DNA from: Candidatus Altimarinota bacterium
GTDB taxonomy: Bacteria > Patescibacteriota > Gracilibacteria > JBDHUY01
NCBI GenBank assembly: GCA_039809385.1
Contig: JBDHUY010000016.1
Location: forward strand, 1 to 37,929
Length of the DNA stretch: 37,929 nucleotides
Direction of reading: 5' to 3'
The position numbers and the translations under genes are program-made. Positions 2,294-32,211 of the stretch are shown here, piece by piece. Each line of letters starts with the position of its first letter. The stretch's first letter is position 1. The notes under the pieces are model-generated. The model did no database searches, was not told where the DNA came from, and saw only the letters and a list, made by a program, of their open reading frames with translations.

Positions 2294-2644
2294 TTAAACA
2301 AATAAACCTGCCGCGCCTTCTCGTTTGGCTCGATCAATCCACAAAGCTACTTGCTCGTCTTTCGGCGTATGACCTGTATTTTCGACAAACCGCTTGATCC
2401 GGTAGGAAATCATTTCGCGCAGCGCCGGGCTTACTTTGCGCAAAAAAACATCTTCCGGCTTGGCTTTTCGAATTTTTCGAATATCCCGGGTCAGAATATC
2501 TTCTTCGTCGATGCATATGATCGCCGCCTGGACGCGAATATGCCGAATTCTTTTACAGGTTTCGTAGTCGACGACATAGAAATCGCCGTTAACCATCTCG
2601 ATGACGTACATCTGCTCGTATTGTTTGAGCGTTGCTTGACTCAT
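2294..2644 (-). CDS. Hypothetical protein translationally coupled to the replication initiator
   Basis: ATGA overlap with the rep stop at 2641-2644; 116 aa. Confidence 0.7.
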   Translation of the reverse strand: MSQATLKQYEQMYVIEMVNGDFYVVDYETCKRIRHIRVQAAIICIDEEDILTRDIRKIRKAKPEDVFLRKVSPALREMISYRIKRFVENTGHTPKDEQVALWIDRAKREGAAGLFV

Positions 2645-3459
2645 ACGGTAGTAAATTTATAAATAATAGTTTGAGAAAAATTAGTTTTTGCCTTGATTTT
2701 GAGCTGGTCGTACTGTTCCCGAAACTTCGCGGCCGACAGAATATTTGCTTTCCAGAACTTGTCGTTCTGGCACCAATTCAACAATACTTCCACATCACCG
2801 GGCGGACGGCCGTCGACCCGTAGTACCAGGTCGAACACTTCCGCCCATGCCTGCAGGCCTGCCTCCTGAATTTGGGGATCCTGCCATTTGGGCAGACAGT
2901 CGGGCGAGTTGTGACGCATGAGTTCAAAAAGCAACTGCGCCAGACGATACGGCTCCGACTCTTTTGCAAAAATTTTAAAAACTTTTTTCGGTCTTCTCCT
3001 CCCCCTGGGGGGATTATAGGGGGGTGCACCCCTGTTTAGTTCTTTACTGGTATAGTTCAGGTCGCTCTGTGCACCTACCCCCCCGTCGTCGTCGGCACCT
3101 ACGTTGTTGCTCTCTGCACCTAGGTAGTCGTTTTCGGCATCTACCTTGGCGGATGAATTCGATTGTACGCGAGGATCTTTATAGACGGTATATTTGGTAT
3201 TATCGTACTCTTGGGATCCTTCAACGAGTTTCTTCTGTCGCGAAATGAGGCCGTCCTTTTCGATCTCTTCGAGGTAGCGCAATACGGTCGTGCGATGGAC
3301 CCCCGTCTCTTCGGCGATCGTATTGAGCGAAGGGTAACACTGACCTTCGTTGTTCGAGTGGACCCACAGCCACGCCACGATCGTCTGATATATGGGGTTT
3401 TTACCCCGGACCAGCTGCGCCGGGAATATGCCGAATGTTCCTTGTTCGAGACGTTTCAT
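2641..3459 (-). CDS. Phage replication initiator (N-terminal HTH_36-like winged helix, lambda-O/DnaD-like C-terminus)
   Basis: CYPSLNTIAEETGVHRTTVLRYLEEIEKDGLI HTH; C-terminal DKFWKANILSAAKFREQYDQL motif typical of phage replisome organisers; internal DNA repeats. Confidence 0.85.
   Translation of the reverse strand: MKRLEQGTFGIFPAQLVRGKNPIYQTIVAWLWVHSNNEGQCYPSLNTIAEETGVHRTTVLRYLEEIEKDGLISRQKKLVEGSQEYDNTKYTVYKDPRVQSNSSAKVDAENDYLGAESNNVGADDDGGVGAQSDLNYTSKELNRGAPPYNPPRGRRRPKKVFKIFAKESEPYRLAQLLFELMRHNSPDCLPKWQDPQIQEAGLQAWAEVFDLVLRVDGRPPGDVEVLLNWCQNDKFWKANILSAAKFREQYDQLKIKAKTNFSQTIIYKFTTV
3061..3143. repeat. Iteron-like repeats inside rep (probable lytic origin)
   Basis: GCACCTA at 3071, 3095 and 3116 and GCATCTA at 3137 (spacing 24, 21, 21), with conserved flanks (GTCG/GTTG-N-TCT/TCG). 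Confidence 0.7.
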
Positions 3460-3605: not shown

Positions 3606-4001
3606 TTAAAAGAGATCCGTTTCCTCCGTTTCGCCCTGCCTGGTATTACGGCTCCCCTCTTCTGTCTGGGGTTTGCGGTCAAGCAAGATAACCCTTTCGG
3701 CGACGATCTTGATCCGGTAATGCTTGACGTCATGGTCGTCCGTCCAGTTGTCGACCTTGAGCTTGCCCTCGACATAAAGCGCGCTCCCCTTCCGGGCGTA
3801 TTGACTGACCACCTTGGCGAGTCCTCCCCACGCGACGACATTATGGAAGTCGGTCTCTTCGCGTTCCTCTCCCGCTCGGTTCTTATATCTCTCGTTTGTC
3901 GCAATCGAAAAGTTGGATACTATCTGGCCGCTTTCAAGCTCTTTCCCCTCCGGGTCGCGTGTCAGACGACCGAGGATCTGAACTCTGTTGAGTGTCTGCA
4001 T
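3606..4001 (-). CDS. ssb: Single-stranded DNA-binding protein
   Basis: LNRVQILGRLTRDPE...FSIATNE...TDFHNVVAW...KGSALYVEGKL OB-fold signature; acidic tail ending ETDLF. Confidence 0.95.
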   Translation of the reverse strand: MQTLNRVQILGRLTRDPEGKELESGQIVSNFSIATNERYKNRAGEEREETDFHNVVAWGGLAKVVSQYARKGSALYVEGKLKVDNWTDDHDVKHYRIKIVAERVILLDRKPQTEEGSRNTRQGETEETDLF

Positions 4002-4019: not shown

Positions 4020-4664
4020 TTAAAATAACAATTCTTGGCGTAGTCCTTCCCGGGCTATATCGCAGTACTTCTCTTCCAATTCGATTCCGATAAACTTCCT
4101 GCCTAGATACTTAGCTGCTATAAGCGTTGTGCCCACGCCCGCAAATGGATCCAGCACCATCTCTCCGGGATTAGAAAAGTACTTTACTAAGCCTAAGACA
4201 TGATCGATACGCCGGGGAGTGGGGTGTTTTCGTCTTTTCCGAGTAATGGGACCGTTATAACCGTTCGAGATAATTTCGCCCGGAATGAGTTTGTTTTCTT
4301 GTCTTTGCGGCAACCGGCCGAATACATAGGCGACATCGGACCCGATGAGGATCCTGCCCCGGTAAGAGGGGAAACAGTAGCGTAGCCACATGGTTCGAAT
4401 ATAGGGGAGACTCTTGGGAATTGAACCCAAGAACCGCGGATCGCTGGTACATCCCAACTGGACCACCACTGTCCGCGCGATTCTTGCAAATTCTTTGGCT
4501 GCTTTACGGAATACCTCCCAGGGATTCTTCGATCCTCGCAAACTCGGCAGAGCATTCGGCCAGACCGGGTCGGTGATGATCGTGTCGACAGATTGATCGG
4601 GGAAAGTTTTTAAAATCTTGAGGCTGTCGCCACAAATAATCTGATTGAGTTGCGTAAAAATCAT
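4020..4664 (-). CDS. DNA methyltransferase, N6-A/N4-C (beta class), orphan
   Basis: IICGDS...IITDPVW catalytic motif variant, HPTPRR, VLDPFAGVGTT SAM-binding motif, FIGIEL. Confidence 0.9.
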   Translation of the reverse strand: MIFTQLNQIICGDSLKILKTFPDQSVDTIITDPVWPNALPSLRGSKNPWEVFRKAAKEFARIARTVVVQLGCTSDPRFLGSIPKSLPYIRTMWLRYCFPSYRGRILIGSDVAYVFGRLPQRQENKLIPGEIISNGYNGPITRKRRKHPTPRRIDHVLGLVKYFSNPGEMVLDPFAGVGTTLIAAKYLGRKFIGIELEEKYCDIAREGLRQELLF

Positions 4665-5033: not shown

Positions 5034-5306
5034 TTAAGCAGATGTGAGGACCCCGCGGCGCCGGACGCCCGGCTTTCCCCGGACCAAGGGATTGGACACT
5101 TTGCAAAAGACCGTGGGCGGGTGCGGGTGGTTTTCGGCACACAAGTGAATCTTCAGGATGGCCGGGAGATCGATCTTGTTTTTGGCCAAGTATTCGTTCC
5201 ATAGTTTCTCACCGCCGCCGCTGACCATAAACTCGGCGATGAAGCGGGAGAAGACAATGCGCGATTGCTGGAACATGTATTCGGTGTACTGTTGAGGTTT
5301 ATCCAT
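5034..5306 (-). CDS. First gene of the leftward early operon, hypothetical
   Basis: Likely start MDKPQQY at 5306 after a pyrimidine-rich leader, directly downstream of the structured RNA leader. Confidence 0.55.
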   Translation of the reverse strand: MDKPQQYTEYMFQQSRIVFSRFIAEFMVSGGGEKLWNEYLAKNKIDLPAILKIHLCAENHPHPPTVFCKVSNPLVRGKPGVRRRGVLTSA

Positions 5307-5358
5307 GGAAAAAATGAAAATGGATAAAAAAACACACGTGTCGGTCACGAGAGCATAC

Positions 5359-5502
5359 AAAAAAGGCTCTCACGGGTGCTATTGCTTAGATAACTATCCC
5401 ATCCTTGGTTTTTATGCCATGGAAAAGATTCCGTGAGGGCCTGCAATATGTTACAGGATTTTTCCATAAAAACCAAATAAATGATAGAATAGTATCTAAG
5501 CA
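5359..5502 (-). ncRNA. Structured leader RNA, element E3 (C4/CI-like A-a-B-a'-A'-B' architecture)
   Basis: A 5483-5502 pairs with A' 5383-5403 (20 bp, 2 G-U, 1 bulge); a 5465-5476 with a' 5405-5416 (12 bp perfect); B 5431-5442 with B' 5364-5375 (11/12), followed by a U-run. Confidence 0.65.
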
Positions 5503-5507
5503 CATAG

Positions 5508-5536
5508 ACAATACGCTCTTTTAATACTATAATCAA
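5508..5536 (-). promoter_or_regulatory. Sigma70-type promoter for E3 and the early operon
   Basis: TTGATT-17 nt-TATTGT; arm A begins ~6 nt downstream. Confidence 0.6.
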
Positions 5537-5584
5537 GTTTTTTGTACTGAAATCTACTTTTTACTTTAATTATTAAAGTTTTTT

Positions 5585-5773
5585 ATGCAAGACAAAAACA
5601 AAACGGACAAATCAGACGTGAAACAAATACAGGTTTCCGTTCACAAAGAACTCTACGACCATATCCAGGAAACCAAAAAGAAGTACCTCTTCTCATCCAT
5701 GGCGGACGTACTGAAGGAGGCTTACAGAAGGACGTTTCTGAAAGAAGAGGAGAAAAACGATAAAAAAAGTTAG
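5585..5773 (+). CDS. Ribbon-helix-helix (CopG/Arc-like) transcriptional regulator
   Basis: KQIQVSVHKELYDHIQE...SSMADVLKEAYR matches the RHH beta-strand/helix/helix pattern; divergent from the early promoter. Confidence 0.75.
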   Translation: MQDKNKTDKSDVKQIQVSVHKELYDHIQETKKKYLFSSMADVLKEAYRRTFLKEEEKNDKKS

Positions 5774-5829
5774 ATTCTTATAAGAAAAAGTCTATATAAT
5801 AAGCCAATGTTATTTGCTTAATATTCAAT

Positions 5830-6861
5830 ATGAGAAAACTTTTTTTAGCAGTATCATTTCTGCTAATACCCTTATTAACTGGATGTTCGTCAGATTGGAT
5901 ATTAAAATTGGTTTCAGAAGAACAAAAACCGGCGACAACTATCGAAACTTACGATTCAATCAAATCAGGCATTAATGCTGAAAAAGCTACAACAGAATTA
6001 AAAGATGCAATAAACATTAAACTTCCCCAAAAAAATCGAACAGAAATACAAAAGGGGGACAGCTTCTTATGGATTACAAAAGACGGTCTTTCTGTAAAAG
6101 CCCAAAATACATTCTTGTTGACATACAAGATATATCTAGGAGATCAGGGGGTTTCGGGTGAGCTAGTTGAGGTGGTTAAGCAACCACAAAATCAAATTAT
6201 TATGGGAGAATTCTTGGAAGTAATGAAGAAGCTCAAATTCAATAAAAATGTCAAAAATAGTTCTGCAAATCCATCGGACGACAAATTCTATAGTTACATT
6301 AAAGCATATGAGAACGACAAAACTGTTTGTTTAATTGAGATAAGACCCGACTATTTCAGTGATAGTGAAGACAGCAAATCTCGATATCAGACAGAAATTA
6401 AATGTATTAGTAAAGAGAACCTAGAACAAGCCTACAATGAGCAGGCCCCGATTCTACGTGACCTAGGATTGACAAATGGGGAGAGTTTTATAACCATAGT
6501 GAGACAGTATGGAGACTTCATAAACTTAAATGTAAATTTTAGAGTAACAGGTTACTTTACTCTGGCCAAAAAAGAGAATGGGCACTACAAAGGTATTTTC
6601 AGCGGACAAGATAGTCCAGAATGTTCTGTACTTAGAGACAATAATGTACCCGCGGAATTCTATAATGATTGCTACGAACCAGAAAATGAACAGAAAATTA
6701 CAACACCGAGCTTTTCTAACCAGCCGTACTATATAGATGATCCTTATTATAATTGCAATATACGCCAAGGGTGTTGCTCCCATCATGGCGGAGTATCTTA
6801 CTGTGATCACAGCTTAGGAAGAGCGGTATGCAATGACGGAACTTACAGCCCCAGTTGCTAA
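5830..6861 (+). CDS. Lipoprotein with C-terminal Cys-rich RQGCCSHHGGV domain (accessory/moron)
   Basis: Signal peptide with lipobox LLTGC; C-terminal CCSHHGGV...CNDGTYSPSC motif; low GC. Confidence 0.8.
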   Translation: MRKLFLAVSFLLIPLLTGCSSDWILKLVSEEQKPATTIETYDSIKSGINAEKATTELKDAINIKLPQKNRTEIQKGDSFLWITKDGLSVKAQNTFLLTYKIYLGDQGVSGELVEVVKQPQNQIIMGEFLEVMKKLKFNKNVKNSSANPSDDKFYSYIKAYENDKTVCLIEIRPDYFSDSEDSKSRYQTEIKCISKENLEQAYNEQAPILRDLGLTNGESFITIVRQYGDFINLNVNFRVTGYFTLAKKENGHYKGIFSGQDSPECSVLRDNNVPAEFYNDCYEPENEQKITTPSFSNQPYYIDDPYYNCNIRQGCCSHHGGVSYCDHSLGRAVCNDGTYSPSC

Positions 6862-6871
6862 AGAATCAAGT

Positions 6872-7174
6872 ATGAAAAAACTACAAACCGTCTTTCTATT
6901 TTTGGCGATCTTGATTACCTTTGGCTGTCAAAAGAGTGAGCCACCAGTTGATACTGTGACTCCCAAACTAGAATCTATGGCCCAGGATATAAAAGTTTTG
7001 AATATAAAAGTAAAAGCAATCGGTGAGGAGGTTTCAGAGCATATTAATGAGATTGACGCACTAGAAAGTGATAGCGAGAGCCTGGAATCGAAAATAAGCG
7101 ACCTTGAATACCAAGTATCTGATATTGAAGATCAAGTAAGTAAACTGCAAAAAAATATTTTATACGGATATTGA
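6872..7174 (+). CDS. Small coiled-coil lipoprotein (accessory)
   Basis: Likely start MKKLQTVF at 6872; lipobox ITFGC; long acidic heptad repeat. Confidence 0.75.
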   Translation: MKKLQTVFLFLAILITFGCQKSEPPVDTVTPKLESMAQDIKVLNIKVKAIGEEVSEHINEIDALESDSESLESKISDLEYQVSDIEDQVSKLQKNILYGY

Positions 7175-7266
7175 TCAAAAAAACTTATCCCCTTTTTATT
7201 GATTTCGCTCAGGCTGGGGGTATACTCCCGGCAGCACGCTTTTTCATAATACAAGTGTGCTGTGGT

Positions 7267-7416
7267 GGGGGACGTGCCGGTTGTCACACCACGCTATCAT
7301 ATCAATGATCAGCGAAGACACGTCCTCCTCTTTCGGTAATCGGGACAAAAAATAAACCTCTTCCTTGTCTGAAGAGCTTTTTGATTGCGGACGGCCACTG
7401 ATAGAATGATGTGACA
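7267..7416 (-). ncRNA. Structured RNA element E1 (A-terminator-B-A'-B')
   Basis: A 7399-7416 pairs with A' 7282-7299 (17/18 with 2 G-U on the minus strand); B 7317-7328 with B' 7267-7278 (11/12), enclosing two hairpins. Confidence 0.6.
7347..7382. terminator. Probable bidirectional intrinsic terminator inside E1
   Basis: CTCTTC (7358-7363)/GAAGAG (7371-7376) stem with an A-tract on the left and a T-tract on the right. Confidence 0.55.
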
Positions 7417-7422
7417 GTTCCC

Positions 7423-7451
7423 AATCTAACAGGTGTTTTGTGCCAGTGCAA
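7423..7451 (-). promoter_or_regulatory. Sigma70-type promoter of E1
   Basis: TTGCAC-17 nt-TAGATT; arm A starts 7 nt downstream. Confidence 0.6.
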
Positions 7452-7491
7452 GCGCCAAAGATAAGAAATTTATAAACTTTTCGTACAAACT

Positions 7492-7613
7492 AATAAAGCG
7501 GGGCTACCAGCCTGGCAGCCCATACGGACAGCTTACGCCAATCCACATGGCAGGACATGATAGCCCCACTCTATTTGTGGATCGGATATTTTGAAAACTA
7601 CCGTATGAGCTGC
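7492..7613 (-). ncRNA. Structured RNA element E2 (A-a-B-a'-A'-B')
   Basis: A 7601-7613 pairs with A' 7515-7527 (13 bp, 1 G-U); a 7576-7585 with a' 7538-7547 (10 bp, 1 G-U); B 7558-7575 with B' 7492-7509 (18 bp, 3 G-U). All apparent mismatches are G-U only on the minus strand. Confidence 0.7.
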
Positions 7614-7619
7614 ATGATC

Positions 7620-7648
7620 AGCATAGAGGAAGTCAGCATATTATGCAA
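7620..7648 (-). promoter_or_regulatory. Sigma70-type promoter of E2
   Basis: TTGCAT-17 nt-TATGCT; arm A starts 7 nt downstream. Confidence 0.6.
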
Positions 7649-7723
7649 AATTGAAAAAGATTTTGACTATTGTAATAGTATACTGTTAGTATATTTATAT
7701 AATACTTTTTACCGAAACAGGTT

Positions 7724-8020
7724 ATGGGAGAAATAACTGGACGTGTATTGATTCAGGTTAGGGTTAATAAGATCTATCGAGACGAAGCGCGGGAGGTGCT
7801 TGACGATATCGGTATGGATGTAACCACCGCAGTTGAGATATTTCTAAAGACCGTAGCAAAAGAAAGAAAGATTCCTTTCACTCTTCGCGCTACGGATCCG
7901 CATGATTTCTATACCGAACAAGATCGCTTGGATATCCAGGAAGCGGCCCGCGAAATTGAAAAGGGCAATTTTATTACCCAAGAAGATCTGATGAAAAAAA
8001 TTAAAGCCCGTAAATCATGA
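7724..8020 (+). CDS. relB: RelB/DinJ-family antitoxin
   Basis: IQVRVNKIYRDEAREVLDDIGMDVTTAVEIFLKTVAKERKIPF is the RelB/DinJ RHH signature; ATGA overlap with the toxin. Confidence 0.9.
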   Translation: MGEITGRVLIQVRVNKIYRDEAREVLDDIGMDVTTAVEIFLKTVAKERKIPFTLRATDPHDFYTEQDRLDIQEAAREIEKGNFITQEDLMKKIKARKS

Positions 8021-8271
8021 AAGTTATATACTATCCCAAGGCTGAAGATTTTCTCCTCAAACTGACACCTAAAAAGTTTGCCGAAAGGATGATTAATAAA
8101 ATGCAGTGGTTTTCACAACAGGAAAATCCCTTGGACTTTGCCAAGCCACTGACTAATTTGCCGCCGGCAACACATCGATTCAGGATCGGGAATTATCGAG
8201 TTACTTTCAGTATCGATAAGGATCAGATCAATGTCTACAAAATTGATATTCGTAGCAAGATCTACAAATAA
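8017..8271 (+). CDS. relE: RelE/ParE-family toxin
   Basis: MKVIYYPKAEDFLLKL...HRFRIGNYRVTF...VYKIDIRSKIYK RelE signature. Confidence 0.9.
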   Translation: MKVIYYPKAEDFLLKLTPKKFAERMINKMQWFSQQENPLDFAKPLTNLPPATHRFRIGNYRVTFSIDKDQINVYKIDIRSKIYK

Positions 8272-8273
8272 GA

Positions 8274-9287
8274 TCACGCCCCCACTCCCCTCACCTGAAA
8301 ACCAGCAATTCCCGCCGAGGACTCTTCTGGGTTATTTTCTGTTTCGGGATCTTGCAGAATATCCTCAAAACTCATTTCACCATCAATGATCTGTGGTAAA
8401 TACGTTCTAGCCTTCGCATTTATGGCAGTTTCCGAAGAACTTAAAATTGCCGGTACTTCCGTCTTGGCTTTTTCTTTAAGGAATTCCCACTGATCCGGGT
8501 GCTCTTCTATCCAGGTATTCAAGATCTGGACTCGGGCCCTGTTCTGTTCTTCCTCTTTTTCTCTTCGACGTTGTTCCTGCTGTTCTTGCTCTCGTCGTTG
8601 TTGTCGTTCCTCTTCCTGTCGTTTTTCTTCCGGACGGACGTCCCAATTATCCTTGAGGGCTGAAATGATCCAAGCCTCCCGGCTGGTCTTGAACGATTCG
8701 ACCCGCCCTGATGCTTCGATCACTTCCTGAATCCGACCAGTCGGGTAATTATTGATTATTTTCTGCCCCTCTGATTTAGAGAAATGTAAATTCTGAAACA
8801 ACTCTTGTGGTTGTTCTTTTTTTGAGTATTGATCACCTGTTTGTTGTTCGTCGGAAACTGATTTCCGCTCTTGACCGGCAATAGATTTCCGAACAGGAGA
8901 GGAATTAGGTTGCCGATCGGGACCGGCAATAGATTTCCTTTCCATGATCTTGGCTTGGTATTCGGCTACAATGTCTTTTCTGGTTTGGGTAAAATCCAAG
9001 AAATGGTAGATATTTGGCCGGTTGAATCCTTGTCTTTCGATCATGATGAGCTTTTTTTTCTCCAGATCTTTCAAAATATTGCGGACCTGCCGTATACTGA
9101 TCTTCGAGTCTTGGCTTAAAGTATCCTGAGCCGGAAAAGCTTCCGGATTATGCCAGGCATAGCTTAAAAGAAGCATATACATTGCTTTTTCTTGTAGCGA
9201 GAGACTGCCAGTGTAGAGAATTACATTCGGCGTCTGGGCAAAACCGTCTCTGAGGATCGGATTGTGGAATACTGCCTTGTCATTCAT
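8274..9287 (-). CDS. Second replication initiator (HTH_36-type; probable plasmid-state Rep)
   Basis: GFAQTPNVIL...LSLQEKAMYMLLLSYAW...AFPAQDTLS...VRNILKDLEKKKLI...NRPNIY winged helix; WIISALKDNW C-terminal motif; internal iterons. Confidence 0.8.
   Translation of the reverse strand: MNDKAVFHNPILRDGFAQTPNVILYTGSLSLQEKAMYMLLLSYAWHNPEAFPAQDTLSQDSKISIRQVRNILKDLEKKKLIMIERQGFNRPNIYHFLDFTQTRKDIVAEYQAKIMERKSIAGPDRQPNSSPVRKSIAGQERKSVSDEQQTGDQYSKKEQPQELFQNLHFSKSEGQKIINNYPTGRIQEVIEASGRVESFKTSREAWIISALKDNWDVRPEEKRQEEERQQRREQEQQEQRRREKEEEQNRARVQILNTWIEEHPDQWEFLKEKAKTEVPAILSSSETAINAKARTYLPQIIDGEMSFEDILQDPETENNPEESSAGIAGFQVRGVGA
8849..8938. repeat. Four 24-bp-period iterons inside the second rep
   Basis: GACCGGCAATAGATTTCC is identical at 8873-8890 and 8921-8938, with degenerate copies at 8849-8866 and 8897-8914; semi-palindromic GG(A/C)A...TT(T/G)CC core. 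Confidence 0.8.
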
Positions 9288-10138: not shown

Positions 10139-10409
10139 ATACGAAACGAATAATATTATGTATAAGAATATTATTCGACCTCTCTGGAATATGCAATACT
10201 ATGAAAGTAAATTGTGCTTACGTCTACTTTCTTTTGTTGCGTACTATTGCCTACATATTCGGCAATAAGCGAAATATGCTAAGTTGAAAAATCAGTATAT
10301 AAGCCAAAATATACGTAATACGTCTTCTTTCTTAATTACCGAAGTTATGTTATACTGCGAAAGAAATAGTAGGAAAAATACTTCACACAACGTAATACTA
10401 AAAACAAAA

Positions 10410-10601
10410 ATGGAAATACTAATCCTCGGATTCTTGATATTCTTTGCGAGTTTGTTCTTCTCCCACCTTCGCCGGATCGACCAGGGGGAGGAGAGTGTGC
10501 CAGACTCCTATACCGACCTTGTAGGGAGTTTTATATTTTTACAAAAACAAAATGAAAACAAAAAAAGAAACGCTCGAAAAAGTCGAGCAAACCGCCAGTG
10601 A
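10410..10601 (+). CDS. Small membrane protein (uncertain)
   Basis: ATG at 10410 after an A-rich leader; N-terminal hydrophobic MEILILGFLIFFASLFF. Confidence 0.4.
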   Translation: MEILILGFLIFFASLFFSHLRRIDQGEESVPDSYTDLVGSFIFLQKQNENKKRNARKSRANRQ

Positions 10602-11286
10602 TAGGCCCAAAACAATATTAGGTGCGGTTTACTACCGGGCCGTATCGGACGTCCTGGAACATGGAATCCAAGCTCCGCTACAGAGGGCTGTACGGGTGCT
10701 CGGTATCATGATACTGATACTCGTCCTGTCCTTCCCCTCATACATTGCTTCGGGAATGATCGCACTGTCCCGGGTGGAAGGGGGACGCTTGCAGACACTC
10801 ATACTTCTGTCGATCGCCGCACTTTTTTGGCCAAAAATAAAAAACGGAATTAAAAAGCTGCATAAAATCGTATTAGACGAATACAATCGAGTCAGGACGA
10901 TACAATATACTGGCCACCGCTTCGAAGGGATCCCAGTTCGTGACCTGATCGATTTTCTATTATCAAGCGACCCCTTCGGCCGAGATGTCTTTGAATTTCT
11001 TTTCCGGGATTTCGTAGCACATCCCCGGGAAGTTCACGCCAAGCTCAAAGAATACCTCCTGGAAGAAGGGATCCTAGTTCGTGCTAAGGAACGGGACAAC
11101 GCGATTGTGCTGAATCCCGAGATCGGGGAGGCTGCATTGATCGAATTTTTTCGGCGTCGGACGGGTGTCCTGAGCAGGGGAGAGCAGGCCCCCTCCCTCC
11201 CCTCGTTCACGATCAGAACAATTCATGGCGAAATTATGAGCGAACCGCATCCGCAAGGCACTGCAAACCAGCCGCAAACCGAGTAG
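10552..11286 (+). CDS. Membrane protein, two TM helices plus cytoplasmic helical domain
   Basis: Hydrophobic segments VLGIMILILVLSFPSYIASGMIAL and LILLSIAALFW; 244 aa. Confidence 0.7.
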   Translation: MKTKKETLEKVEQTASDRPKTILGAVYYRAVSDVLEHGIQAPLQRAVRVLGIMILILVLSFPSYIASGMIALSRVEGGRLQTLILLSIAALFWPKIKNGIKKLHKIVLDEYNRVRTIQYTGHRFEGIPVRDLIDFLLSSDPFGRDVFEFLFRDFVAHPREVHAKLKEYLLEEGILVRAKERDNAIVLNPEIGEAALIEFFRRRTGVLSRGEQAPSLPSFTIRTIHGEIMSEPHPQGTANQPQTE

Positions 11287-11390
11287 GGGAGGGGAGTACA
11301 AGCTCTACAGTTTAAAGTTGTTGACTTCCTATAAGATATGCTATATTTAGTATGTCTTTTTTTTCAAACGCCGTATTATTTTTTTCATAT

Positions 11391-11702
11391 ATGAAGAATA
11401 CGTATCAAAAAGGTCAAATCAGGACTTTAATCTTTCAACGACCTGACGGAATGTATTAGGGGGTTGTTTTTGAGTTTGGTATTGTGGAAGAGGGAGAGGA
11501 TAAATACAAGCTCTTGAAATCTTTACAGGAAGCAGCCAAGCTTTATCTGGAAACCATTGTGAAAGAAAAATGTTCCGAAGATCAACTCAATTATGAGATG
11601 GATCAGGAGTATGAAAGTTTGTGGCAAAAATCTCAAACCAAGAAACAATCATTTTTGTCGACCGACGAAGAGTCCTGGCTTTACAAATATATGAGTTTAT
11701 AG
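11391..11702 (+). pseudogene. HicB-like protein interrupted by an in-frame TAG (11457-11459)
   Basis: MKNTYQKGQIRTLIFQRPDGMY*GVVFEFGIVEEGEDKYKLLKSLQEAAKLYLE matches the HicB N-terminal fold pattern across the stop; TGcTATATT extended -10 upstream. Confidence 0.65.
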
Positions 11703-11717
11703 CCTGAGTCGATAATC

Positions 11718-11793
11718 TGGTAGCGGGCCCCGGAGTTGAACCGGGATAAGACAGGTTATGAATCTGCCAAGGTCGCCGTCCCTTCCACCCGCG
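11718..11793 (-). tRNA. tRNA with CAT anticodon (Met/fMet/Ile2), encoded CCA
   Basis: CGCGGGT-GG-AAGG/CCTT D-arm-GCAGA TTCATAA CCTGT-CTTAT-CCCGG TTCAACT CCGGG-GCCCGCT-A-CCA; 76-nt cloverleaf. Confidence 0.85.
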
Positions 11794-11964
11794 CTATTGT
11801 TTATCTTGTCTTTGCTGTTCTTTCCCAAAAAAATACCCAACGGCCAGCATCACCGCGCCGGATACTTCGGGTTGGACTTTTTTATTGACAAATAAATCGC
11901 CTGCCATGAGCAGGATTAGTGCTAACGCGATCATGAAGTGTGCAGACAATAAGGTATCTTTCAT
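11794..11964 (-). CDS. Putative holin, 56 aa (not in ORF track)
   Basis: MKDTLLSAHFMIALALILLMAGDLFVNKKVQPEVSGAVMLAVGYFFGKEQQRQDKQ*: two hydrophobic helices, GYFFG motif, charged tail, downstream of the endolysin. Confidence 0.7.
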   Translation of the reverse strand: MKDTLLSAHFMIALALILLMAGDLFVNKKVQPEVSGAVMLAVGYFFGKEQQRQDKQ

Positions 11965-12095
11965 TTTTTCAAAAAAATAATGAAATAAAATAGAAGCGCG
12001 AAATCTGCCAATAAATTAAAAATCAACAAAAATTCAAATAAAATCATAGTAGGGAAGGCATTTTACATTACTTTGTACAATAATAGTTGTGCAAA

Positions 12096-30610: not shown

Positions 30611-31153
30611 CTAAGAAACGCCGAATTCCCTGGCGGCATCTTTATTATTTTGGAGGTTCAGACGATGTCCTTGAGGAACCTTCGTCACACTCTCAACGTG
30701 CTGTTTCACCAGCTCGGCGATGGATTTAGGCACTTCGACCATTATTCCTTTCTGGATGATGTACCTATAACCATTGATCGAGACCATATCCTGAGCTCCT
30801 TCCTTCTCCCCGTTCATCAGCGGCCAGAAAACCGAGACCTTGGGTTCGGAGTCCAAAATCCTTTTGATTTCGAGTTGCTCTTCGAGATCCCGATTGATCC
30901 GGTCTTGCACTGGGTCATGAGTAGAAGAAGATTGGTCTCTTTTCAAGTTCGCAATCTCTTTTTCTTTTTGCTGATTCGATACCTTCATCTCTTGCAATTG
31001 CTCGCGCATCTCTGCCATTTGCGCAACGAGATCTTCCAGCACTGTATTAGTCGCAGAACTTTCTTCAGAATCAGCTCCTGAATCTTGCGACGGATCCTGA
31101 GAAGTATTTTCAGAATCGTCTTTTTTCAAACTTTCGGATTTAGTTGATTTCAT
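30611..31153 (-). CDS. Conserved protein downstream of N4-gp56-type capsid
   Basis: VSINGYRYIIQKGIMVEVPKSIAELV motif typical of genes following this capsid family. Confidence 0.65.
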   Translation of the reverse strand: MKSTKSESLKKDDSENTSQDPSQDSGADSEESSATNTVLEDLVAQMAEMREQLQEMKVSNQQKEKEIANLKRDQSSSTHDPVQDRINRDLEEQLEIKRILDSEPKVSVFWPLMNGEKEGAQDMVSINGYRYIIQKGIMVEVPKSIAELVKQHVESVTKVPQGHRLNLQNNKDAAREFGVS

Positions 31154-31183
31154 TTTTGAAATTTAAGGAGTAAAATTCGACAC

Positions 31184-31219
31184 TTTAAGAGAAGCAGTTT
31201 CTAGGCTGCTTCTCTTAAA
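31184..31219. terminator. Long hairpin after the major capsid gene
   Basis: TTTAAGAGAAGCAG/CTGCTTCTCTTAAA perfect 14-bp inverted repeat, 8-nt loop. Confidence 0.65.
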
Positions 31220-31224
31220 TGCGC

Positions 31225-32211
31225 TTAGGAACCGTAAGTCTCAAGCCGGGCCATGAAAGCATTATTCAAAATCAATGCCGCAAACGTGGCTTTCCACCCC
31301 ATCGTTTGGCGCTGATTCAAGGCATCGGCCGAACCGGCCGAACCAAGCGGATGAATAATCGTCTCCATGGCATGCCCGGCCACTTCTGTAGTCCCATAGG
31401 CTTCACGCGCCAAGATTAACGTAGCATAAACATCCACGCCGCCAGAGCCGCCACCAGCAAATTTTTTAGCATTCGAGCTCATAACAAAGCGAAACATACT
31501 GTACGAGCCAACCTCGCCAGGCAGTATACCCATCTGGGCACTGTACTTTTCGACTCTAGTAAAGCCGGTAAGACCTTTTAGAACGTAATAAACTCGAGGA
31601 TGGATGATCGCGACAAAACAAGCCGGAATCGGAGTCGTATTCACCTTGTCTGTCGGATTTATCATCTCAGTAATCGGTCGTGCGTTGTTTTCCAAAAGAT
31701 TCCGCTCGATCTTATCCAGCAAGGTCGTACTGATTACATCCGACGAAGTTATCTGATTGCGGTTCGTGTACGTCGAAGGTAAAAACAGATTCGTCCCCGC
31801 CACCAGTACGTCCCGGGTAACCTGATCGAGCGTATCCGCTGCCTGATCCCCCTGTAAATCGGAGGTATCCATCAGGCTCTCATTTTTCATCAAGTCGTCC
31901 GGAGTCTCCCATTCGAGTACGTCCGATATGGTGACATAGTCGCCATATTGAGCATACGTCACCTGTACTTCCGTCGTAGACAATTGGGAACCGTTAGGCG
32001 TCACTCCTTCGGTGAGCGGAGTTGTCGCGGCTGTCAAATTGCTGTAACGGCGAAATTTCACAGTGCCGGTACCGGCTTTGGTTGGGATCGATTTAACCCG
32101 GCCCCAACGATTGTGGAGAAATAAAGGGAGCGCACGCAGTAGCAGATTTTTGTCGTAAAAGTTATTGACTTCTGCCGGTACCTGCGTACGCGTGGTTACA
32201 CTAGCTGCCAT
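31225..32211 (-). CDS. Major capsid protein, N4-gp56 family
   Basis: FYDKNLLLRALP...VKFRRY...TPLTEGVTP...QYGDYVTISD...DALNQRQTMGWK signature. Confidence 0.92.
   Translation of the reverse strand: MAASVTTRTQVPAEVNNFYDKNLLLRALPLFLHNRWGRVKSIPTKAGTGTVKFRRYSNLTAATTPLTEGVTPNGSQLSTTEVQVTYAQYGDYVTISDVLEWETPDDLMKNESLMDTSDLQGDQAADTLDQVTRDVLVAGTNLFLPSTYTNRNQITSSDVISTTLLDKIERNLLENNARPITEMINPTDKVNTTPIPACFVAIIHPRVYYVLKGLTGFTRVEKYSAQMGILPGEVGSYSMFRFVMSSNAKKFAGGGSGGVDVYATLILAREAYGTTEVAGHAMETIIHPLGSAGSADALNQRQTMGWKATFAALILNNAFMARLETYGS

Follow-up and report, generated by a model that had tools for sequence, protein, structure and literature searches.

How do phages of Patescibacteria-type hosts switch their early genes? 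To our knowledge, next to nothing is known of gene regulation in these phages. The question is raised by contig JBDHUY010000016.1 of Candidatus Altimarinota bacterium, a phage genome of 38 kb that was binned together with a bacterium of small genome size, which we analysed over its whole length of 37,929 bases (the window). A preliminary description of this DNA had noted three non-coding elements on its minus strand, E3, E1 and E2, in which the 5' end of a supposed transcript (arm A) can pair with a downstream segment (A') located inside a second helix (B:B'), and had interpreted them as an RNA immunity system of the C4/CI type. The coordinates, strand and arms of all three elements are as first described (Table 1). 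For E2 and E3, both the structures and the two-state design are genuine and unlikely to be products of chance; E1, which is the weakest of the three, is plausible as a two-state structure. We tentatively regard E3 as a promoter-proximal attenuator of the early operon, possibly with a nested regulator RNA on the same strand, and E1 and E2 as orphan units of the same build. This interpretation falls somewhat short of an even chance, because promoter firing, termination at the U runs, the existence of short RNAs and their action in trans are all inferred.

On the minus strand, the A:A' helix consists of 18 Watson-Crick and two G-U pairs in E3 (-24.4 kcal/mol), 15 and two in E1 (-22.2 kcal/mol), and 16 and three in E2 (-28.4 kcal/mol). 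When a 20-nt arm was paired with the next 120 nt at 2998 random sites, the 1% and 0.1% quantiles were -21.0 and -24.7 kcal/mol. The B:B' helix of E2, in which 18 of 18 positions are paired (three of them as G-U; -27.8 kcal/mol), is clearly beyond chance. Those of E3 (-17.3 kcal/mol) and E1 (-19.3 kcal/mol) are marginal when taken alone, at about the 5% and 2% background levels, respectively. As whole elements, E3 (z = -6.16) and E2 (z = -4.92) were matched in stability by none of 300 dinucleotide shuffles each, and E1 (z = -2.34) by 4 of 300. In a sliding scan of about 1080 segments of 140 nt on the minus strand, the three best places all belonged to E2 or E3, and E1 ranked about 12th.

The second fold is also more stable than expected. 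Masking of the first 20 nt left an alternative fold with a z of -2.74 in E3, -4.64 in E2 and -3.13 in E1. The proposed order A..B..A'..B' was recovered in all three elements: A' lies between the B and B' strands and the two folds are mutually exclusive. The arms are unlike between elements, again as described; a 9-mer shared by the E1 and E3 arms was dismissed as a chance match (11 matches with at most one mismatch, 11.1 expected). In E2, the alternative fold reaches -48.2 kcal/mol against -54.7 kcal/mol for fold 1. An H-type pseudoknot containing both of its 18-bp helices at once was rejected on geometric reasoning, since A' and B' are only about 2 nt apart. One detail had to be corrected: B:B' was said to close two small hairpins, and in E2 it closes one long hairpin instead. 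E1 is nearly bistable, since its minimum free energy (MFE) fold switches between A:A' and B:B' as the transcript grows. The small open reading frames (ORFs) inside the elements include no likely type I toxin and no likely leader peptide equipped with a start signal.

When six intergenic structures of related phages, similar in stability, were masked in the same way, their z values were only -0.3 to -1.3. As these controls have no significant second fold, the two-state property is particular to E1-E3. This result bears on the possibility that the elements are ordinary structures for RNA processing or stability (5'-end protection or RNase III-type sites, as in T7-like early RNAs), with alternative folds that have no regulatory role. 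Very stable rod- or Y-shaped structures in plain intercistronic gaps are a habit of this phage group: the coding strand of the relatives has many of them where co-oriented genes are separated by short gaps (z of -4.9 to -7.2, much weaker on the other strand; Table 1). Helices of 18-20 bp have the usual length of RNase III substrates, and pairing from position +1 is a known way of stabilising an RNA. However, the relatives' structures lack the significant second fold that E1-E3 have, and four of the structures in Table 1 that were put through the masking test were all single-state. Processing also leaves the perfect 18-bp B:B' helix of E2, with its three G-U pairs, unexplained, and E1 and E2 have no gene downstream whose mRNA would need to be processed. 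We consider this explanation unlikely, if still worth serious attention.

The elements also have a regular position relative to promoter-like motifs. Matches to TTGN3-N17-TAN3T on both strands of the window occur at chance frequency (19, with 20.1 +/- 4.8 expected), and three of the 19, one per element, end 5-7 nt ahead of the A arms. A fourth match, inside E3, ends 5 nt ahead of helix B, which brings those ending 5-7 nt upstream of a closing helix to 4 of 19. When 2060 motif sites (spacer of 16-18 nt; the window and 62 related loci) were ranked by the pairing of their +1 arm, E2 came first, E3 fourth and E1 eighth. A TTG-type -35, a 17-nt spacer and a -10 were therefore found before each A arm, as had been claimed; their agreement with the consensus is considered below.

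E3 precedes the early operon of the minus strand, in which a gene for a 90-aa orphan protein is followed by those for a methylase, SSB and a DnaD-like initiator. Between E3 and the 90-aa gene (5306) there is no further motif match, and E3 is therefore read as the leader of this operon. Its fold 1 joins A:A' and an inner helix a:a' into a Y shape. The B:B' helix followed by six U has the configuration of an intrinsic terminator with a structured loop, mutually exclusive with A:A' in the predicted folds; it is absent from the list of our terminator scan because the enclosed loop is above the limit of that scan. Judged by folding, the configuration of an attenuator with an intrinsic terminator is present in E3 and in E2, whose hairpin-plus-U site (7521-7501) has 7 nt in common with A'. 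The hairpin-plus-U site of E1 (7376-7358) is not exclusive with A:A'.

We propose that the three elements are minus-strand transcription units, each starting from a sigma-70-type promoter. Each RNA would begin, at about +1, with an 18-20-nt arm A that clamps onto A' 80-115 nt downstream. In E3, fold 1 would occupy strand B and free B', and RNA polymerase would continue into the operon. If arm A were kept from pairing, B:B' would form right before the six U and transcription would stop. E3 would then act as a transcription attenuator in which the antiterminator is the RNA's own 5' end. The likeliest blocker of arm A would be a separate short RNA from the B-to-B' part of the same region, for which the nested promoter-like motif would provide a start exactly at B, processing being the alternative source. 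This 84-nt RNA (5442-5359) is predicted to be self-closed by B:B' with a U tail (z = -4.1) and to expose, in a 7-nt hairpin loop, the 3' end of A', which is complementary to the leader's first 7 nt. Regulator and target would be encoded on the same strand, as in the logic of the P4 CI RNA.

Two observations on the E3 region may be recorded here. The start region of the 90-aa gene (5303-5315) recurs within E3 (5417-5429) as a direct repeat of 13 nt centred on CCATGG, with 12 positions identical; the copy in E3 would open a two-codon mini-ORF. The plus-strand promoter-like site of a 62-aa gene (5505-5533), which scores 11/12 and is the best of the region, overlaps the promoter-like motif of E3 (P_E3) face to face, and probably only one of the two could be occupied at a time. 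A 15-nt palindrome with 7-bp arms (5564-5578) in the 5' untranslated region (UTR) of the 62-aa gene could be an operator.

The elements were searched against Rfam. Membership in the C4, c4-2, c4-a1b1 or isrK families, which the preliminary description had suggested for checking, was not borne out, with 0 matches at the gathering threshold in the whole window. At E <= 10, the region 5200-7800 gave three unrelated hits (AaHKsRNA20, MIR7991 and sR084), all far below gathering scores. No riboswitch or known aptamer model matched at either setting. Hammerhead, HDV-like and other ribozymes and a phi29-type pRNA were also discarded, as none had an Rfam match and the phage uses a terminase. The multiple target boxes of C4 and CI were not recovered either, since each arm pairs with a single partner within the window, and no antirepressor operon lies downstream, where the genes are those of the early operon given above. 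In outline, E3 would work like P4 CI, but it is not a member of the C4 or CI families.

The likeness to P4 lies in the logic of E3. In the excerpted account of PMC4825925, P4 CI is an RNA derived from the leader; by pairing with boxes in the leader, it makes transcription of the replication genes end prematurely. E3 is predicted to have in common with it (P4 as described in the same excerpt of PMC4825925) a regulator in the untranslated leader of a replication operon, on the same strand as its target, complementarity to an upstream leader sequence, and premature termination as the output. According to that excerpt, P4 CI pairs with seqA upstream and seqC downstream (PMC4825925), whereas E3 has an upstream partner only: no seqC-like downstream copy of its box was found with up to three mismatches or by duplex energy. 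P4 CI also has no sequence or covariance-model similarity to E3. The proposed target box of E3 would be the very 5' end of the RNA, acting as an intramolecular antiterminator, and E3 has a nested promoter-like motif in place of demonstrated processing. A P4-CI-like logic for E3 is thus plausible: the leader position and the predicted display of the 5'-end complement agree with this part of the earlier claim, and the missing family match and the single box do not.

Other known systems differ in other ways. RNAs of the P1/P7 C4 type are stem-enclosed, expose recognition loops and are encoded upstream of the operon they control; the loops match two sets of boxes in that operon, and an antirepressor gene lies downstream. 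E3 is predicted to be such a stem-enclosed small RNA with an exposed recognition loop upstream of an operon, but the elements lack paired a/b boxes and the downstream genes are not icd/ant. In the antisense-RNA attenuation of pT181, pIP501, pAMbeta1 and pCF10, blocking the 5' strand of the leader lets the terminator form, and the regulator is a countertranscript from the opposite strand. The E3 leader would have the same parts, namely an antiterminator strand at its upstream end, a terminator, and between them a strand common to both; however, no convincing plus-strand promoter covers its arm A, the nearest candidate start being at about 5497. Most of the examples of such attenuation logic known so far come from satellite phage P4 and plasmid countertranscripts. 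If our interpretation is true, RNA-controlled transcription attenuation gains a form that acts on the same strand and senses the 5' end, and three unrelated sequences with one two-state design in one genome would offer a compact model for the diversification of RNA specificity modules.

E2 and E1 would most likely yield short non-coding RNAs, or alternatively might gate minus-strand transcription running antisense into the plus-strand island 5585-7174. Folded alone, their B-to-B' RNAs have z values of -6.5 (E2) and -3.9 (E1), with the complement of the first 6 nt (E1) or 5 nt (E2) of the long RNA left unpaired. Neither element contains a nested promoter motif, and the short form would therefore need processing. 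It may also be that E1 and E2, possibly together with the E3 short form, act in trans as small RNAs on targets outside this genome, either host mRNAs or early leaders of phages that compete with this one (the heteroimmunity of the preliminary description). Several features would suit such a function: the units are orphans, each with a promoter motif and terminator-like ends of its own, their loops would display the complement of a defined sequence, and the arms differ between elements. Against it, no arm has a partner in the window above the shuffle background beyond its own A', and none was significant in the other 25 contigs of the incomplete host assembly (best blastn-short E 0.051). IMG/VR gave 0 exact matches to the 18-nt A arms of E1 and E2, a weak search restricted to exact words. 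The proposed orphan heteroimmunity cassettes have no support from these results, and we regard small RNAs with targets outside this genome as quite unlikely. A bolder version, in which the elements are self-contained RNA immunity modules of a new design, where the 5' end of a long RNA is its own antiterminator and a nested same-strand short RNA, with the complement of that end in a loop, flips incoming leaders to the terminator fold, with E3 serving the phage's own replication operon and E1 and E2, as cassettes with other specificities, shutting off early transcription of competing phages, is a long shot. On the opposite strand of E1, a promoter-like site (7281-7309) and the two-way hairpin at 7358-7376 could give a plus-strand RNA of about 70 nt (7281-7385), which would overlap the E1 terminator region and form a convergent RNA pair.

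Several observations weigh against the attenuator reading of E3 and its orphan counterparts. The first group concerns the strand. In favour of the minus strand, G-U pairs make up 11 of 107 pairs across seven helices, and the minus strand is better by 5-11 kcal/mol for all A:A' helices and for E2 B:B', as it is for E3 (-51.3 vs -40.3 kcal/mol) and E2 (-54.7 vs -36.8 kcal/mol) as whole elements. The statement that imperfections resolve as minus-strand G-U pairs therefore holds for these helices. It does not hold for the B:B' helices of E3 and E1, where the single mismatch is C.A or A.C and becomes G.U on the plus strand, which makes the helices as good or better there; the marginal B:B' helix of E3 is in fact better on the plus strand. 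E1 as a whole has no strand asymmetry (-46.0 on the minus vs -45.7 kcal/mol on the plus strand), and its B:B' portion may instead be a piece of the 3' UTR that follows the lipoprotein genes on the plus strand. The symmetry of E1 would agree with inverted repeats that act as DNA, as a replication origin, protein-binding half-sites or cruciforms near the initiator gene. Apart from the 11287-12095 region, no non-coding stretch is larger than the E1/E2 gap (7175-7723, 550 bp). The initiator-like gene 8274-9287 is no more than about 630 nt away from this gap, on the far side of the relB-parE pair. However, the long helices are much better on one strand because of their G-U pattern, the positions of the promoter motifs fit an RNA, and the region 5200-7800 revealed neither iterons nor short boxes that recur. 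A function as DNA is thus very improbable.

The second group concerns the proposed switch. When the growing transcript of E3 or E2 is folded, fold 1 is favoured at every length; read-through would therefore be the default of E3, and termination would need an outside agent. With arm A alone masked and the downstream sequence present, B' of E3 pairs with a downstream segment and not with B. The U run of E2 is interrupted and absorbed into the B:B' stem. All four promoter motifs are weak consensus matches: P_E1, P_E2 and P_E3 score 7-8/12 against the sigma-70 consensus and are not among the sites of a stricter scan, which qualifies the earlier promoter claim, and the nested motif is present in E3 alone.

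The last group concerns comparative and expression data. In a protein database, the 90-aa protein found only itself, which gives no covariation support. Nine of ten neighbouring proteins are present in a cluster collection, in clusters of one or two members, and the neighbouring proteins are singletons at 90% identity. Relatives identified by the terminase large subunit (TerL; 55 IMG/VR and 6 genome-collection loci) have structural genes in common and no early region. The eight sequencing runs listed, from two studies, include none of RNA, and contigs from four of the eight are identical to the window, with no population variation.

Table 1. Positions of the elements, neighbouring genes and related structures (window coordinates unless a related locus is named)
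Feature	Position	Strand	Remarks
P_E3 promoter-like motif	5508-5536	-	-35 5531-5536, 17-nt spacer, -10 5508-5513
E3 arm A	5483-5502	-	begins 6 nt past the -10, near transcript position +1; sole window partner is A'
E3 inner helix a:a'	5404-5478	-	about 5465-5477 with 5404-5416; encloses two small hairpins; MFE folds, inverted repeat I5
Nested promoter-like motif in E3	5448-5476	-	-35 5471-5476, -10 5448-5453; consensus match
E3 strand B	5431-5442	-	5' strand of the terminator-type helix
E3 arm A'	5383-5404	-	between B and B'; 3' end in the 7-nt hairpin loop of the B:B'-closed fold
E3 strand B'	5365-5378	-	then six U at 5359-5364
P_E1 promoter-like motif	7423-7451	-	-35 7446-7451, -10 7423-7428
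E1 arm A	7399-7416	-	
E1 internal hairpin	7358-7376, within 7346-7376	both	flanked by an A run and a U run; terminator-like on either strand
E1 helix B:B'	7266-7330	- (strand ambiguous)	about 7318-7329 with 7267-7278; encloses two small hairpins and A'
E1 arm A'	7282-7299	-	
P_E2 promoter-like motif	7620-7648	-	-35 7643-7648, -10 7620-7625; divergent from the relB promoter region
E2 arm A	7595-7613	-	
E2 strand B	7558-7575	-	apical part of the rod in fold 1; inverted repeat I8
E2 arm A'	7515-7535	-	3' part common to the terminator-like hairpin 7501-7521
E2 strand B'	7492-7509	-	perfect 18-bp helix with B
90-aa orphan protein	5034-5306	-	first gene after E3
Methylase	4020-4664	-	
SSB	3606-4001	-	
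DnaD-like initiator	2641-3459	-	
Plus-strand island 1	5585-7174	+	62-aa protein and two lipoprotein-like ORFs
Plus-strand island 2	7724-8271	+	RelB/ParE-like pair
Plus-strand island 3	10284-11286	+	
Rod/Y structures of relatives	L027:6060-6209, L012:4112-4205, L019:4872-4975, L019:6536-6685, L030:8039-8160, L039:800-949, L039:2055-2204	coding strand	
Portal-scaffold hairpin loci	L013, L020, L023, L024, L029, L031, L033, L035, L039, L042-L044, L047-L049, L051, L055, L059, L063		e.g. L039:8392-8482, L063:3572-3672

The window is one of 26 contigs in an assembly of 1.87 Mb. It encodes small and large terminase subunits, portal, major head and tail-fibre-like proteins, an amidase endolysin, SSB, a DNA methylase and two replication-initiator-like proteins of the DnaD/HTH_36 type, and it is therefore the genome of a tailed phage. 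Its closest cultured phages are at most 37% identical in the major head protein. The TerL relatives in IMG/VR are contigs of 36-41 kb with 45-62% TerL identity, and three of the six genome-collection matches are in Patescibacteria or Parcubacteria bins, which fits the small genomes of the window's own class. Nearly all genes are on the minus strand, a pattern broken by three plus-strand islands. Two separate replication-initiator-like genes (HTH_36 / DnaD_N; 2641-3459 and 8274-9287) are present within one 38-kb phage, and a tRNA-Met (CAT) gene lies on the minus strand (11718-11793) in the non-coding stretch after the endolysin gene. A palindrome (7668-7693) overlaps the promoter region of the RelB/ParE-like pair (7724-8271), divergent from P_E2.

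Two broader statements of the preliminary description have to be restricted. RNA-based lysogeny control presumes a temperate phage, and no integrase was found among the 24 window ORFs scanned. The absence of a protein repressor cannot be asserted, because the window encodes several HTH-domain proteins as well as the 62-aa protein, the gene of which is divergent, from a promoter overlapping P_E3. The 62-aa protein has no Pfam or PDB sequence match, and its single-sequence AlphaFold model is one long helix; a ribbon-helix-helix assignment was dropped because neither result supports it.

Relatives of the region were sought more widely. A DNA search of phage GenBank records gave no match to the window, and a DNA search of 61 genomes (60 related and its own) gave, besides the window, two matches of 28-34 nt (E about 5e-4). 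The 90-aa protein had nothing better than E 0.0013 in 401 genomes of the class. The 90-aa, 62-aa, 337-aa and 272-aa proteins had no confirmed relative in IMG/VR, and the 272-aa protein had one match in JGI metagenome contigs (30% identity, on a 2.9-kb contig). In the 55 + 6 TerL relatives, E1-E3 had 0 matches. Matches to the other early or neighbouring genes tested were confined to the methylase (five loci), SSB (one) and the DnaD-like gene (one, and in addition metagenome locus L067), none of them in a shared early region.

One structure in a related contig (L039; TerL 52% identical) resembles E3. At L039:1463-1570, a strong promoter match is followed by a +1 arm, the complement of which lies in the loop of a hairpin-plus-U4 terminator, with a gene downstream. 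It has the order A..B..A'..B', the promoter match and the downstream gene in common with E3. It differs in being much smaller (about 70 nt) and in having no sequence similarity to E3 and no inner hairpins, and it is itself uncharacterised. By its predicted folds, it is an independent, smaller example of the A..B..A'..B' design.

Other structures were observed in the course of this study. In the window, the sequence directly after the major head gene (31081-31225) contains a strong structure, including an 18-bp near-perfect hairpin, with a minus-strand z of -6.0, and it is an outlier on the plus strand as well. A very stable long hairpin (z of -6 to -8.6 on the coding strand) occupies the portal-scaffold intergenic gap of 19 of the 47 related loci; it has a conserved apical motif with an invariant GG.G core, conserved stem boxes and often a second hairpin after it. 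Five of these loci, when searched against Rfam, gave no match. RNAalifold returned 0 pairs on a MAFFT alignment of the hairpins that was too poor for this purpose. The hairpin is a candidate for a conserved phage RNA family and is not present in the window. E1-E3 were rejected as members, because the motif expression finds nothing on the minus strand of 5300-7700. Finally, the TerL match is split in two in L055, L056 and L060, and the major-head match is split in L060, which points to intervening sequences, for example introns, inteins or genes for homing endonucleases.

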